Shown: piece after piece, positions 7,952-11,413 of the stretch
Position numbering within the stretch: position 1 is the first letter of the stretch
Layout: the number at the start of each line of letters is the position of its first letter
Assembly (NCBI RefSeq): GCF_016903815.1
Contig: NZ_CP069973.1
Direction: 5' to 3' (one strand)
DNA length: 64,000 nt
Source of the DNA: Escherichia coli
GTDB taxonomy: Bacteria > Pseudomonadota > Gammaproteobacteria > Enterobacterales > Enterobacteriaceae
Notes under the pieces: generated by a model
The model's database searches: none
Told to the model about the DNA's origin: nothing
Seen by the model: the letters and a program-made list of their open reading frames with translations, nothing else
Program-made: the position numbers and the translations under genes

Positions 7952-8716
7952 TTAACCTTTCCGCTCGACGGAAATCATGGTGACAAAAGGATAGCGTTGC
8001 CACGGGATTGCCCCGCCTTTCATATACATATGTGAAATTGTGCCATCAAGATAAAGCAACTGCTCAACGTTCAGTTTCGCTTTGGCATAACAGACAAAAT
8101 CATAAAAATTTGTCGCCTGCTGGCTCAACAAAAACACGGCGTTCCCTTGTTTATTAATCCCTACACCGTTACGAATTTTACGCGAGGCAACATTCGGGTG
8201 AATACGCGGATTAATTACGCCGTTTTCCATCAACATTGGCCCTGACTGCACCGCAAACTGAATCTCTTTACTGGTTTTAAAGGCATCCAGACGAACGATG
8301 CCGACTTTATCTCCCGCGACATAAAACACGCCGCCAGGACGAATAAAGAAATTCCCTTCACCTGAAGCGAGATTTAACGCCACCTTCTGCTGACCGTTTT
8401 CGATGTACAAACCGAGCGGCGCATAGCTTTCATCATAGATGCCGCCGTTCATCGCCATCTGCACCTGACCCTGACTATTAATATCCGCCAGCAGAGCATG
8501 TAACGTTCCCCACGCTTCGCCATTGGCTTTTTGCCAGTACATTTTCACCCGCTCTGTTTGAGGATTAACGATATACGCCTGTACGGTCAGCGCCGGATCT
8601 GAGAGTGCGCAATCATCAGCGGCAACAGCAAACAAGGGAAGTAAGGTGAGGGTGAGAAAAATCCGTTTGAGATTCAAGGTGATCATTCCTTTACCAATGA
8701 GTAGCCGATGCGCCAT
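7952..8716 (-). CDS. yigE: DUF2233-family exported protein YigE
   Basis: 254 aa; N-terminal hydrophobic signal-like segment; conserved position upstream of corA. Confidence 0.8.
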   Translation of the reverse strand: MAHRLLIGKGMITLNLKRIFLTLTLLPLFAVAADDCALSDPALTVQAYIVNPQTERVKMYWQKANGEAWGTLHALLADINSQGQVQMAMNGGIYDESYAPLGLYIENGQQKVALNLASGEGNFFIRPGGVFYVAGDKVGIVRLDAFKTSKEIQFAVQSGPMLMENGVINPRIHPNVASRKIRNGVGINKQGNAVFLLSQQATNFYDFVCYAKAKLNVEQLLYLDGTISHMYMKGGAIPWQRYPFVTMISVERKG

Positions 8717-9085
8717 TATAGGTCCTGGATGTGGGATTTTTTTATCCTGTTAGCGACCTTGACGAGTACCAAAAAGCGCGAAGTTCAACTATTGTTCTGT
8801 GGTGTTCTGTTGCGTGTTGACGGCAAAATTTTGCTGGCGTAACATGCGCGCACGATCACTCTAAGAGGACATTCGCCTTGGACACACCCAGTAGATACTG
8901 GCTCACTATCCTGTCATCCAGGATCAACTCCTAAGGCTATCCCTTTTTGCTGATAGCCTTAGCGGTTGTCAGCGACCTCAATTTTTCCCGTCGCGCTGAG
9001 TCAGGCTGTTTAATGGTCTGAAACCCAATTTGTTTCTGTGTGCCCACCGAACTGTCCGATATTTTAAGCATTGGGAGTCCCGGTC

Positions 9086-10036
9086 ATGCTGAGCGCATTT
9101 CAACTGGAAAATAACCGACTGACCCGGCTGGAAGTCGAAGAGTCACAACCCCTTGTAAATGCAGTATGGATTGATCTTGTCGAACCGGACGACGACGAGC
9201 GACTGCGCGTACAATCTGAACTTGGCCAGAGCCTGGCAACCCGCCCGGAACTGGAAGACATCGAAGCATCGGCACGTTTCTTTGAAGACGATGACGGCCT
9301 GCATATTCACTCCTTCTTCTTCTTTGAAGATGCGGAAGATCACGCCGGTAACTCCACTGTGGCATTTACCATCCGTGATGGTCGTCTGTTTACTCTGCGT
9401 GAGCGTGAACTGCCCGCTTTTCGTCTATATCGTATGCGTGCCCGTAGCCAGTCGATGGTAGACGGTAATGCCTACGAGCTGCTGCTGGATCTGTTCGAAA
9501 CCAAAATCGAACAGTTGGCAGATGAAATTGAAAATATCTACAGCGACCTGGAGCAGTTGAGCCGGGTAATTATGGAAGGGCATCAGGGCGATGAGTACGA
9601 CGAGGCGCTCTCCACGCTGGCGGAACTGGAAGATATCGGCTGGAAAGTTCGCCTGTGTCTGATGGATACCCAGCGTGCGCTCAACTTCCTGGTGCGTAAG
9701 GCGCGTTTACCGGGCGGGCAACTAGAGCAGGCGCGTGAAATCCTGCGAGATATCGAATCCCTGCTGCCGCATAACGAATCTCTGTTCCAGAAGGTGAACT
9801 TCCTGATGCAGGCGGCGATGGGCTTTATCAACATCGAGCAGAACCGCATCATCAAAATCTTCTCGGTGGTATCCGTCGTGTTCCTGCCGCCAACACTGGT
9901 TGCTTCCAGCTACGGGATGAACTTTGAGTTTATGCCAGAACTGAAGTGGAGTTTCGGCTACCCAGGCGCGATTATCTTTATGATCCTCGCGGGCCTGGCA
10001 CCGTATCTGTACTTTAAGCGGAAGAACTGGTTGTAA
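9086..10036 (+). CDS. corA: Mg2+/Co2+ transporter CorA
   Basis: 316 aa [17 protein letters not shown]...; signature YGMNF and two C-terminal TM helices. Confidence 0.95.
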
Positions 10037-10076: not shown

Positions 10077-10568
10077 CTAAAAATTGTCTTTTTTAAAGTC
10101 ATGCGGATTGAAAACTCGCTCTATTTTATTTTCTTGTGTTAATTGATACTCAGTAAAATCGTTAATACCAATATGAGTGTTACGATAAGGGTATTCATTA
10201 ATAACCATTAAGTAATTTTTCACGATGCAATTATCATTGCTCTTAATTGTCGGGAAACAGTAGAGATCTTCATACGGCCCTTCGATATATTTTTTATAGT
10301 CAGTGAAGCCATTACCGATATCAATGACATACCAGGTATGCCAACTACCTTCTGGTAGGGGATGTTGATTTTTAATTTCATTCTGATGCTTCAGATACCA
10401 ATTTATTTTATCGCTGTCAGTCCATGGCAGATGATCAACGACCAGAAAGACTGAATTGCCAGCATCAGAGTATGTATACAAAATCTGTACAGGACGCAAT
10501 GTCCATAAATTATAGATGCAGCATAGAAGAAATAAACATAATATAATTTTCTGGAGTTTACTTTTCAT
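10077..10568 (-). CDS. hypothetical exported or membrane-anchored protein; candidate immunity partner of the upstream gene
   Basis: 163 aa; N-terminal hydrophobic segment (KIILCLFLLCCIYNLW); start overlaps the upstream stop (ATGA); very AT-rich; no family recognised. Confidence 0.55.
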   Translation of the reverse strand: MKSKLQKIILCLFLLCCIYNLWTLRPVQILYTYSDAGNSVFLVVDHLPWTDSDKINWYLKHQNEIKNQHPLPEGSWHTWYVIDIGNGFTDYKKYIEGPYEDLYCFPTIKSNDNCIVKNYLMVINEYPYRNTHIGINDFTEYQLTQENKIERVFNPHDFKKDNF

Positions 10569-11413
10569 AGATAATTTTCGATTCTTTCGATAGTGTTAAA
10601 ATTGGTGAAAAAAGGTTTGAAAGCAAAGTCTTTATGCCGTTGTAAAAAGAACCATATGCGAAAAAATCTATATTTGCTGTAAGTCTTGTTTTTTATATCA
10701 GTTACATCCAAACCAAAGTGGTCTTGTGCTATGAAATGAATGGTAGCGCTCCAGCCCATAGGATATTTTTGAAAATTTAAAAGAGAGATTTTTTGAGCTG
10801 AGATATCATGAATGCTGATTCCCAGGCCATTAAAATTATCTTTAAAATCATTGAATTTATTTAGTCTTGATGAAAGTAATTCGATCTTAATCTTTTGTAG
10901 GAGAAGAGGCCGGTATCCTATCGTAGGTGTTGAAGAAATATCATTTTCGATACATTCTTTGATTACACGTATTGGGCTATTATAATCATATTTGTTTATT
11001 CGTTCATGAAAAGATAAGTTCAATTCCTGGCTATGGAAACTGTTGCCATTTCCATATCTAAAATGATCAATCAGATCCTGGATGAGTGTTTTGTATTGTC
11101 CAAAAAAGGAAAACATTTTTGCCAGATCTTTCATTTCTGCAAATAAAATATCAATACATTCACTTTGTGATATTTTTGTTCCGGAAGTTGGAACACTAAA
11201 AGCACCATAAGTAGAATTCGGCCCAGGAAAATGGTATTTAATGAGGCGGTAAGGATCAACTTTTGCAGAGATGTCGCTTAAGCCGAGTGAGAGAAAATCT
11301 TGTTCTTCCATATCCCCATATTGCATATCATCAGCAGAAAAATCATCGAATAAAGTAATAGTTTCGAAAAGTGTACAGGGCATATTAATTGATGAGCCTA
11401 ATATGTTGTTCAT
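10565..11413 (-). CDS. hypothetical 282-aa soluble protein; candidate orphan effector/toxin
   Basis: Long ORF in a strongly AT-rich block between corA and rarD; no signal peptide; translationally coupled to the downstream 163-aa gene; family not recognised. Confidence 0.55.
   Translation of the reverse strand: MNNILGSSINMPCTLFETITLFDDFSADDMQYGDMEEQDFLSLGLSDISAKVDPYRLIKYHFPGPNSTYGAFSVPTSGTKISQSECIDILFAEMKDLAKMFSFFGQYKTLIQDLIDHFRYGNGNSFHSQELNLSFHERINKYDYNSPIRVIKECIENDISSTPTIGYRPLLLQKIKIELLSSRLNKFNDFKDNFNGLGISIHDISAQKISLLNFQKYPMGWSATIHFIAQDHFGLDVTDIKNKTYSKYRFFRIWFFLQRHKDFAFKPFFTNFNTIERIENYL

Follow-up and report, generated by a model that had tools for sequence, protein, structure and literature searches.

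The main Mg2+ channel of enteric bacteria is CorA, whose expression was long regarded as constitutive. In Escherichia coli its gene is preceded by a long intergenic spacer, which raises the question of whether this DNA is empty or encodes a regulatory RNA. We studied the spacer in a window of 64,000 nucleotides (contig NZ_CP069973.1), the whole stretch of DNA analysed, to which all positions refer. The neighbour on the far side is the divergent gene yigE (7952-8716, minus strand), and the RefSeq corA coding sequence starts at 9086 on the plus strand, with the ATG at 9086-9088 and a Shine-Dalgarno sequence, GGGAG, at 9073-9077. The spacer, 8717-9085, measures 369 nt, in agreement with the ~370 nt of a sequence-only reading, which had proposed that it holds a cis-acting regulatory RNA rather than empty DNA. 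The short open reading frame corL, the conservation of the region and published Rho-dependent control (PMC5314796, PMC11552253) support this proposal. With high confidence, the spacer contains a promoter and a ~232-nt corA 5' leader that is an upstream ORF (uORF)-controlled, Rho-dependent transcription attenuator. The cis-acting leader was correctly recognized, but the corL/Rho-dependent attenuator is already published and is hence not new. It is a textbook-level case of uORF-guided Rho-dependent attenuation, which ties Mg2+ homeostasis to the translation status of the cell. The window is E. coli chromosomal DNA; the segment 8600-9200 is 100% identical to many complete genomes, and the identity is at least 99% in 5,439 of the 5,443 matching records.

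A sigma-70 promoter for corA is located at 8817-8845 on the plus strand, with a -35 box TTGACG (8817-8822), a 17-nt spacer and a -10 box TAACAT (8840-8845). It is the sole promoter-like site found in 8500-9300. The mean identity among 81 sequences changes from 0.19-0.65 upstream (8756-8815) to 0.80-0.96 at the promoter. The conservation begins at the -35 box and holds at 0.7-0.99 up to the corA ATG; it is strong in the 80 other Enterobacterales loci, the comparison that the sequence-only reading had suggested. Published constructs and numbering place the likely transcription start at 8852-8854, ~7-9 nt past the -10 box. G8854 is +1 in the E. coli constructs, as indicated by the junctions of the oligos oFM4, GencorAfor, PBADCorArev and F-pLacUV5-corA, and the oligo name corA41-71txR (8894-8924) also gives +1 at 8854. 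In the 5' part of the leader, the Salmonella mutation numbers correspond to the window position minus 8851, which makes A8852 the Salmonella +1. The in vitro termination positions U211 and G216-U220 fit +1 at 8853, one nucleotide off the construct numbering. Because these three numberings disagree (8852, 8853 and 8854), the start is given only as a range. According to the published E. coli oligos, the construct start lies 232 nt upstream of the corA ATG and not within ~50 nt of it. The leader therefore does not occupy the whole ~370 nt, as had been supposed, but the last ~232-234 nt (8852/8854-9085). The first ~135 nt of the spacer is poorly conserved and is promoter or neighbour DNA. Among the compared Enterobacterales loci, yigE is the neighbour in Escherichia only.

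The leader contains a short open reading frame, for which a search had been recommended. This uORF, corL, is located at 8878-8934 on the plus strand and is identical to the RefSeq coding sequence ysgD, annotated with exactly these coordinates between yigE and corA. It has 18 codons with a UUG start (MDTPSRYWLTILSSRINS) and a UAA stop at 8932-8934. Its Shine-Dalgarno sequence, GAGGA (8865-8869), lies 8 nt upstream of the UUG and is present in all 80 sequences that reach that far, one locus stopping short upstream. The uORF itself was found in 81 of 81 sequences with a UUG start every time, and its N-terminus, MD(T/A)PSR(Y/C)WL, is nearly invariant. The published mutagenesis oligos that change the start codon to AGG or AUG target 8878-8880, and the oligo for the corL-lacZ fusion matches too. 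An alternative-frame open reading frame of 27 codons from AUC 8916, possibly 'CDS177', is open in many species, with a start that is not conserved.

The hairpin placed at ~8931-8959 by the sequence-only reading is a 28-nt string located at 8933-8960, 1-2 nt off that position. It forms the centre of a more extended inverted repeat, 8925-8941/8952-8968, with 17-nt arms that are 88% complementary. The corresponding stem-loop C (8925-8968, plus strand as are all stems described here) consists of 8925-8929/8964-8968 and 8931-8941/8952-8962 and has the loop CCUUUUUGCU. Its predicted energy is -20.4 kcal/mol, compared with -7.2 +/- 2.2 kcal/mol for shuffled sequences (z = -6.0; 0 of 200 shuffles as stable). 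In the alignment it is 96.6% paired, with 4 pairs changed on both sides. GGC 8935-8937 and GCC 8956-8958 in this stem are the sites of the Salmonella mutations M1 and M2. Upstream, stem A closes a three-way junction at 8875-8937. Its outer helix (8875-8881/8931-8937) pairs the corL start codon with the corL stop codon and encloses the hairpins 8888-8892/8897-8901 and 8908-8913/8919-8924. The local fold of stem A with the junction has a predicted energy of -20.5 kcal/mol, the outer helix is 99.1% paired in 77 distinct sequences, and the arrangement agrees with the pairing of Salmonella M1* (G24 C25 C26) to M1 (G84 G85 C86).

Stem-loop B (8947-8975) is formed by 8947-8958/8964-8975, with a predicted energy of -16.7 kcal/mol (z = -5.1) and 93.7% pairing. 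U8948/C8950 and G8972/G8974 in its arms are Salmonella M7 and M5, and precisely these arms are changed by the published E. coli oligos for the ON and OFF mutants. Stem-loop D (8972-8994) pairs GCGAC 8972-8976 with GUCGC 8990-8994 across the pyrimidine-rich loop CUCAAUUUUUCCC. It is 100% paired, with compensatory change in 3 of 5 pairs. Salmonella M5 and M6 fall on G8972/G8974 paired with C8994/C8992, a match that this register gives if the D loop is taken to differ by 2 nt. The register 8969-8974/8994-8999, which appears in the local fold, is only 83% paired and was rejected in favour of the fully paired, compensated GCGAC/GUCGC register. Stem-loop E (9001-9021; 9001-9009/9013-9021) has a predicted energy of -8.2 kcal/mol (z = -3.0), 90% pairing and changes on both sides in 6 of 9 pairs. 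It is equivalent to Salmonella 152-172, where G155 G156 C157 T158 and G166 G167 T168 C169 match 9004-9007 and 9015-9018. A small conserved hairpin follows at 9020-9036 (GAAAC 9020-9024/GUUUC 9032-9036), which is unnamed in the text sections of the published reports. It is 97.6% paired and survives loop insertions of 20-25 nt in Yersiniaceae, Pectobacteriaceae and Hafniaceae loci. Across the 80 other Enterobacterales loci stems A-E remain 90-100% paired, compared with 15-45% for slid controls. The compensatory evidence is thin for stems A and B (0 and 1 pairs changed on both sides, respectively) because most stem positions are invariant.

These stems compete for the same RNA. Segment 8947-8968 belongs to both B and C, 8972-8975 to both B and D, and 8931-8937 to both A and C. 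The folding models thus give two mutually exclusive conformations, A+B and C+D, with nearly equal predicted energies: -46.1 kcal/mol for the OFF fold (A with its junction, B and E) and -46.8 kcal/mol for the ON fold (the junction hairpins, C, D and E). Stem-loop E is present in both. The minimum-free-energy fold along the growing transcript proceeds from A to C, then to A+B and finally to C+D, and the fold of the whole leader has z = -3.7. The anatomy of the leader, its two near-isoenergetic, exclusive folds and their conservation are established in the present analysis.

The pyrimidine-rich tracts mentioned in the sequence-only reading are indeed found, at 8938-8951 (86% C+T) and 8976-8996 (76% C+T). 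There are 40 YC dinucleotides in the 232-nt leader versus 9 in the 137-nt promoter part. A putative rut region maps to 8940-9026 from Salmonella positions 89-177, and the YC sites UCC 8940-8942, CCC 8987-8989, UC 9001-9002, UC 9017-9018 and CCC 9024-9026 agree with the published positions. The major site of RNA polymerase pausing in Salmonella, U192, is predicted to correspond to 9041 (position + 8849). The bases G9032 (-10), U9041 (-1) and G9042 (+1) around this site constitute the cited consensus pause pattern. The Rho/NusG-dependent termination zone, from the published E. coli in vitro positions U211 and G216-U220, is located at 9063-9073.

The leader described in Salmonella and E. coli (Kriner & Groisman 2015, 2017; Vezina Bedard et al. 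2024) has the same locus, the same promoter-to-ATG layout, the UUG uORF and stems A-E, and the E. coli study (Vezina Bedard et al. 2024) worked on the very sequence in the window. Salmonella positions convert to window positions by adding 8851 in the 5' part and 8849 from the 3' arm of stem D onward; the 80 compared loci contain no Salmonella locus, and this mapping was done by matching published base identities. All Salmonella mutations listed in the text (M1, M1*, M2, M5, M6, M7 and M19-M24) fall where predicted, both in base and in stem. The E. coli leader is ~4-6 nt shorter than that of Salmonella, lacking 2 nt in the loop of stem D and another 2 nt from the stretch between ~9045 and the ATG, and its numbering begins 2 nt later.

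Combining the published data and our folds suggests how the switch would operate. The nascent leader would first present the corL Shine-Dalgarno sequence and UUG start. If corL is efficiently translated up to its stop codon at 8932-8934, we infer from the ribosome footprint that ribosomes would sit on the 5' arm of stem-loop C. Segment 8947-8968, common to B and C, would then pair downstream to form the termination-permissive stem-loop B, and the C/U-rich tracts flanking B, together with the YC dinucleotides to ~9026, would be left single-stranded as the rut site. Rho could load there, catch RNA polymerase at the pauses in the distal leader and terminate transcription either around 9063-9073 or once it reaches the corA start codon. 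When corL is translated poorly or its translation stalls early, a situation found at low intracellular Mg2+, 8925-8941 would be free to pair with 8952-8968 in stem-loop C, the anti-termination stem. Formation of B would be blocked and D allowed, the rut site would be masked, and transcription would proceed into corA.

Rho dependence, the inverse coupling of corL and corA and the Mg2+ response rest on the literature (PMC5314796, PMC11552253). Transcription is terminated by Rho within the leader, and the more corL is translated, the less corA is expressed (PMC5314796). At higher intracellular Mg2+, efficient corL translation was reported to favour stem-loop B, so that the rut site is exposed and transcription is terminated by Rho ahead of corA. 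The E. coli leader gives promoter-independent repression by intracellular Mg2+; changing the corL UUG to AGG de-represses and changing it to AUG represses (PMC11552253). The Rho R66S substitution weakens the Mg2+ repression only from 3.3-fold to 2.4-fold (PMC11552253). Because this effect is partial, other factors contribute to the Mg2+ regulation. The corL-AGG mutant still responds 1.3-fold to Mg2+ (PMC11552253), and the sensing routes considered are ribosome elongation, initiation or direct RNA folding. A 2025 review counts the corA leader as an established case (PMC12360218). None of the findings in the present analysis contradicts the attenuator model.

Several other explanations of the leader were weighed against the attenuator. 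That the hairpin reflects an inverted repeat occurring by chance in an ordinary spacer has only the prior that hairpins are common in its favour, and it is refuted by the stability of stem-loop C relative to shuffles (z = -6.0, none of 200 as stable), the 96.6% of pairs kept across Enterobacterales and the published mutational evidence; its probability is practically nil. The hairpins could instead constitute an intrinsic, Rho-independent attenuator of the trp leader type, in which B with the U-run 8982-8986 is the terminator and C the anti-terminator. The B/C alternation does have the logic of an attenuator, and a terminator scan flags 8947-8975 followed by CCTCAATTTT. However, the scan gave 2 terminator-like matches against 1.1 +/- 1.2 expected, which is no enrichment; the U-run is interrupted, lies 6 nt from the stem and varies by species (identity 0.52 at 8976-8985); and the mapped termination at ~+211 to +220 takes place ~90 nt beyond B, with stimulation by Rho/NusG. 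Stem B as a trp-type terminator (8947-8975 then CCUCAAUUUU) was rejected on these grounds, namely a count at shuffle level, a displaced U-run and 3' ends elsewhere, and an intrinsic mechanism is very improbable. Direct metal sensing, an idea first put forward for mgtA, would have Mg2+ binding shift the balance of A+B and C+D, with corL translation secondary. It would account for the 1.3-fold regulation that persists without the corL start codon, where the authors allow a Mg2+-dependent change of leader structure, and for the ~24% in vitro termination without Rho at saturating Mg2+ (PMC11552253); with isoenergetic folds, a small ligand effect could tip the balance. On the other hand, there is no match to any magnesium-sensing RNA family in Rfam at E <= 10, and changes of the corL start codon shift expression strongly and in the direction that the uORF model predicts. 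We consider direct sensing as the main mechanism unlikely.

The two remaining explanations assign the conserved elements to mRNA decay or to the peptide. If the leader were mainly an RNase III target that sets the half-life of the corA mRNA, its duplexes would be cleavage sites, and RNase III cleavage sites reportedly do lie in the corA 5' UTR. According to papers citing the original work, RNase III controls the decay of the corA mRNA (Lim et al. 2012, J Bacteriol 194:2214). In the leader, stem C has 16 bp and a long-range duplex of ~34 bp is possible; the enzyme is said to need a ~22-bp stem, longer than stem C, and the effects of Rho and corL have been directly shown in published work. A principal role in mRNA stability is thus possible but doubtful, and RNase III control is an added layer and not an alternative to the attenuator. 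Lastly, the conservation could reflect a functional small protein, YsgD, and not an RNA switch. The N-terminal MD(T/A)PSR(Y/C)WL is preserved through synonymous codon variation, with Arg encoded by AGA or CGA and, in place of Thr, Ala encoded by four different GCN codons, and tagged YsgD is detectable and has been used as a loading reference between blots. The C-terminal half is, however, highly variable, with a length of 17-25 residues, the nucleotide conservation extends 150 nt past the open reading frame, and start-codon strength alone alters corA expression in cis. The conserved N-terminus equally fits a nascent-peptide or ribosome effect, and a protein function as the cause of the conservation is rather improbable.

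The attenuator can be compared with two known systems. The mgtA leader with mgtL, a Mg2+-responsive, Rho-dependent attenuator in Salmonella, likewise precedes a Mg2+ transporter gene as a long leader. The two leaders have in common a uORF within a three-way junction (stem A in corA), a choice between exclusive folds that leaves a rut site accessible or masked, and control of pausing at a far downstream position. The two have no detectable homology in sequence or structure. The Rfam covariance search (cmscan, 8400-9400, E <= 10) returned four chance-level matches, mir-76, AaHKsRNA54, tracrRNA and sR53, all far below gathering scores, and no match to the magnesium-sensing families, such as the mgtA 'Mg sensor' and the M-box. 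The corA leader thus works like that of mgtA but outside these families, and the search suggests that Rfam 15 has no corA-leader family. Whereas the mgtL peptide is rich in Pro and acidic residues, corL has one Pro and one Asp. Unlike mgtA, corA is without PhoPQ promoter control and responds to intracellular Mg2+ only. For mgtA, Rho involvement was not detected in E. coli. In the tnaC/tnaCAB leader, as in corA, ribosome occupancy of a short uORF governs the access of Rho to a rut site just past the uORF stop (PMC12360218). In tna it is the stalled ribosome that covers the rut site at the stop codon, whereas in corA the ribosome acts indirectly via the choice of RNA fold and efficient translation promotes termination.

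One lead is possibly new. The Salmonella study of 2017 found that C+D suppress polymerase pausing more than 100 nt downstream via an 'unknown element', which was left unexplained. Our folding models tentatively point to a conserved long-range clamp beyond stems A-E, in which the corL Shine-Dalgarno sequence, start and codons 1-9 (8865-8906) may pair with the distal leader (8997-9057, plus strand). The candidate helices are 8898-8905/8997-9004, 8888-8897/9007-9016, 8879-8887/9038-9046 and 8867-8875/9048-9057. In addition, the 5' end (8854-8862) might pair with the corA Shine-Dalgarno region (9074-9085). All these helices taken together would close a four-way junction around the hairpin 8908-8924 and stem-loops C and D. 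As modelled, the clamp can coexist with the ON state only and rules out stems A and E. If true, it could lock out corL re-initiation and hide the distal YC dinucleotides, and it could be the 'unknown element', giving a concrete and testable mechanism for long-distance control of pausing. An apparent covariation at A8897/G8897 in the per-species duplexes was discounted; it is a register shift onto C9006 with no compensatory change. The long-range helices appear in the full-length minimum-free-energy fold and are 85-89% paired in the alignment, and RNAalifold retains the CACA/UGUG pairing with AU to GC compensations. Natural changes on both arms occur at U8872A/U8873A with A9050U/A9051U in Pectobacterium and at A8884G/A8886G with U9041C/U9039C in Pantoea. 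The per-species duplexes have predicted energies of -25 to -42 kcal/mol (median z -3.2), and cognate arm pairs beat non-cognate ones in 5000 of 5000 permutations.

The spacer between yigE (7952-8716, minus strand) and the corA start codon (ATG at 9086) covers 369 nt (8717-9085). It is in an E. coli chromosome; 8600-9200 matches many complete E. coli genomes at 100% identity, and 5,439 of 5,443 matching records reach at least 99%. The sole sigma-70-like site within 8500-9300 consists of TTGACG (8817-8822), a 17-nt spacer and TAACAT (8840-8845). In the E. coli study, +1 falls at G8854 according to its oligonucleotides (the Ptet and PBAD junctions, and 'corA41-71' at 8894-8924), and the Salmonella numbering corresponds to +1 at A8852. 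The leader is therefore 232-234 nt long. The sequence-only reading, which proposed 8717-9085 as a structured leader, holds for these last 232-234 nt; the first ~135 nt are promoter or neighbouring DNA.

Eighty further corA loci from Enterobacterales were collected via CorA protein similarity (Escherichia, Citrobacter, Enterobacter, Klebsiella, Kosakonia, Cedecea, Serratia, Yersinia, Rahnella, Hafnia, Edwardsiella, Pectobacterium, Dickeya, Brenneria, Pantoea, Erwinia and Mixta), and the 330 nt 5' of the corA ATG were aligned. Identity to E. coli is 0.19-0.65 in 8756-8815, rises to 0.80-0.96 at the -35 and -10 boxes and holds at 0.7-0.99 from there to the ATG, the cross-enterobacterial conservation that a regulatory leader had been expected to show. 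Among all 81 loci, yigE adjoins corA in Escherichia only, its place being taken by another gene in the remaining genera. What is conserved is thus the promoter and leader of corA, not the entire spacer. Conservation restarts exactly at the -35 box (8817) despite the differing upstream genes outside Escherichia.

The hairpin string singled out from sequence, aaggctatccctttttgctgatagcctt, is present at 8933-8960 as the core of an inverted repeat (8925-8941/8952-8968), and the pyrimidine-rich tracts noted with it are at 8938-8951 and 8976-8996. In RNA form, 8925-8968 makes a 16-bp stem capped by a 10-nt loop; its energy is -20.4 kcal/mol, compared with -7.2 +/- 2.2 for shuffles (z = -6.0; 0 of 200 as stable). 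Local folds and energy evaluation define this hairpin as stem-loop C among five elements. In stem A (8875-8881/8931-8937; -20.5 kcal/mol including inner hairpins), the start codon of the upstream ORF corL is predicted to pair with its stop codon, closing a three-way junction with hairpins 8888-8901 and 8908-8924. The others are stem-loops B (8947-8975; -16.7 kcal/mol, z = -5.1), D (8972-8976/8990-8994; -6.1 kcal/mol, with a pyrimidine-rich loop) and E (9001-9021; -8.2 kcal/mol, z = -3.0), the last present in both states. Because A and C overlap at 8931-8937, B and C at 8947-8968, and B and D at 8972-8975, A+B (OFF) and C+D (ON) are mutually exclusive. Their summed fold energies are near-equal (-46.1 and -46.8 kcal/mol), and the minimum-free-energy fold of the growing transcript passes from A to C, then A+B, then C+D. 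In these models, such balance and flipping are what a kinetic switch requires.

These elements coincide with the published ones. Salmonella positions convert to window positions by adding 8851 (5' part) or 8849 (from the stem D 3' arm onwards), and all named Salmonella bases then match the E. coli sequence. The Salmonella leader mutations fall in stem A (M1*, G24 C25 C26, 8875-8877), stems A and C (M1, G84 G85 C86, 8935-8937), stem B (M7, T97 and C99, 8948 and 8950), stems B and C (M2, G105 C106 C107, 8956-8958), stems B and D (M5, G121 and G123, 8972 and 8974), stem D (M6, C143 and C145, 8992 and 8994) and stem E (M24^, G155-T158, 9004-9007; M20^, G166-C169, 9015-9018). This match identifies the hairpin as stem-loop C, the conformer in which the Rho utilisation (rut) region is masked. 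Mapped from Salmonella, rut (89-177) spans 8940-9026, with YC dinucleotides at C175-177 (9024-9026); further downstream lie the major pause site, U192 (9041), and the YC dinucleotides altered in M23, C194-196 (9043-9045). Two published E. coli mutants also alter exactly the arms defined here: in the ON mutant, 8964-8968 is changed from GGTTG to ACAAC; in the OFF mutant, TAGCC becomes CACGG and the B 3' arm is altered to compensate.

The corA leader element is thus already known and well characterised in Salmonella and E. coli, and a 2025 review treats corA as an established uORF-controlled Rho attenuator (PMC12360218). Rho terminates transcription within the leader; rut is exposed by stem-loop B, which efficient corL translation favours, and hidden by C+D (PMC5314796). 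The E. coli leader responds to intracellular Mg2+, and repression upon a rise in Mg2+ from 20 to 50 uM comes from the leader rather than from the promoter (PMC11552253). Rho/NusG-dependent ends at U211 and G216-U220 correspond to ~9063-9073, and Mg2+ regulation is weakened in the Rho R66S mutant (PMC11552253). Changing the corL start to AGG de-represses and to AUG represses, corL-lacZ rises 1.7-fold at higher Mg2+, and regulation partly persists without corL translation (PMC11552253). Judging from the anatomy, a ribosome at the corL stop codon (8932-8934) would mask the C 5' arm and let B form; with the ribosome absent or stalled early, 8925-8941 would be free and C would form first. The original observation is confirmed and its interpretation as a regulatory leader supported; the remaining value of our analysis is the exact coordinate map and a candidate long-range pairing.

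The short leader ORF that had been sought is annotated in RefSeq as ysgD at exactly 8878-8934. It starts with UUG 8 nt past GAGGA (8865-8869), has 18 codons (MDTPSRYWLTILSSRINS) and ends in UAA. The published start mutants and the corL-lacZ fusion oligonucleotide fit these coordinates, and ysgD is corL. It is kept in 81 of 81 sequences, and GAGGA in all 80 that extend that far upstream. The N-terminus, MD(T/A)PSR(Y/C)WL, is almost invariant and the C-terminal half varies. Arg6 is conserved via AGA/CGA and Ala at the Thr3 position uses all four GCN codons, which argues for some peptide-level constraint besides that on the RNA. The weak UUG (8878-8880) is unchanged in every sequence; given the opposite corA shifts caused by AUG and AGG, selection appears to act on start-codon strength itself. 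In Yersinia aldovae, the stop is changed from UAA to GAA, lengthening the uORF to 25 aa. An alternative-frame ORF of 27 codons (IQDQLLRLSLFADSLSGCQRPQFFPSR; plus strand, AUC at 8916 to UGA at 8997-8999) overlaps the corL end and stems C, B and D. In many species 26-36 codons of this frame are open; its AUC start is not conserved, and the ORF may be 'CDS177', a PIRT-seq ORF with an AUC start overlapping ysgD.

Other modes of control could act besides this Rho attenuator. Direct Mg2+ sensing by the RNA is possible as an added layer, but an Rfam search of the leader region returned no match of any kind. RNase III is reported to control corA mRNA, also as an added layer. A trans-acting role for the YsgD peptide is conceivable but not needed, and an intrinsic terminator at stem B was rejected.

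Pairing of the Rho attenuator's stems was scored on the 80-sequence upstream alignment (77 distinct rows). Paired cells amount to 99.1% for stem A, 96.6% for C, 93.7% for B, 100% for D and 90% for E; slid controls gave 15-45%. Variation is mostly tolerated by both alternative partners: A8955 is G in about a third (23-25 of 77 distinct sequences), keeping G-U pairing in B and C. Stem C has compensatory changes at 8925/8968 (C-G to U-A, five sequences), D at three pairs and E at six. The Y. aldovae leader carries three compensatory pairs in stem D (CAGCAGC...GCUGCUG, in the region aligned to 8932-8994). A small hairpin 3' of stem E (GAAAC/GUUUC, 9020-9036), which the consulted sections of the published leader text do not name, is 97.6% paired (alignment columns 219-260); its loop has a 20-25 nt insertion in Yersiniaceae, Pectobacteriaceae and Hafniaceae loci, with the stem retained.

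In the minimum-free-energy fold of the full-length leader, the 5' half of corL is paired to distal leader sequence. Predicted helices (8898-8905/8997-9004, 8888-8897/9007-9016, 8879-8887/9038-9046 and 8867-8875/9048-9057) would close a four-way junction around hairpin 8908-8924 and stem-loops C and D. They are 85-89% paired in the alignment, with a 5' segment that is near-invariant because it also encodes corL. RNAalifold keeps CACA/UGUG, with A-U to G-C compensations in Pantoea, and compensating differences occur in Pectobacterium (UAACG/CGUU for AUUCG/CGAA) and Pantoea (GGACAAUGC/GCGUUGUCC); independent events are few. Per-species fits, which are biased towards pairing, give duplexes of -25 to -42 kcal/mol (median z = -3.2). 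Cognate segments pair better, at -34.5 kcal/mol versus -32.3 for non-cognate ones (0 of 5000 permutations as low); cognate duplexes are weaker in Serratia grimesii, Edwardsiella and Dickeya. In the published Salmonella work, C+D suppresses pausing >100 nt downstream by an unexplained route and stem E is seemingly not the predominant fold in vitro, both of which the long-range pairing would fit; as a caveat, M23 left in vitro termination efficiency unchanged. We regard this pairing as a tentative, rather doubtful lead beyond the published stems. A further predicted helix, which would help to close the four-way junction, could pair the leader 5' end (8854-8862) with the corA Shine-Dalgarno region (9074-9085; ACUCU/GGAGU, GAUC/GGUC); only 72-76% of its pairing is kept across species, with a few compensatory changes.

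In Serratia sp. Ag1, whose 5' part is outside the fetched range, ~65 nt are inserted between the distal leader and the corA Shine-Dalgarno (alignment columns 327-396), an insertion missing from every other locus. On the other side of corA, 3' of the gene, a DUF943-family gene (10077-10568) and a YPO3983-family gene (10565-11413) lie on the minus strand. A high content of Asn, Lys and Ile in the predicted proteins hints at AT-rich DNA, which may be a strain-variable insertion.
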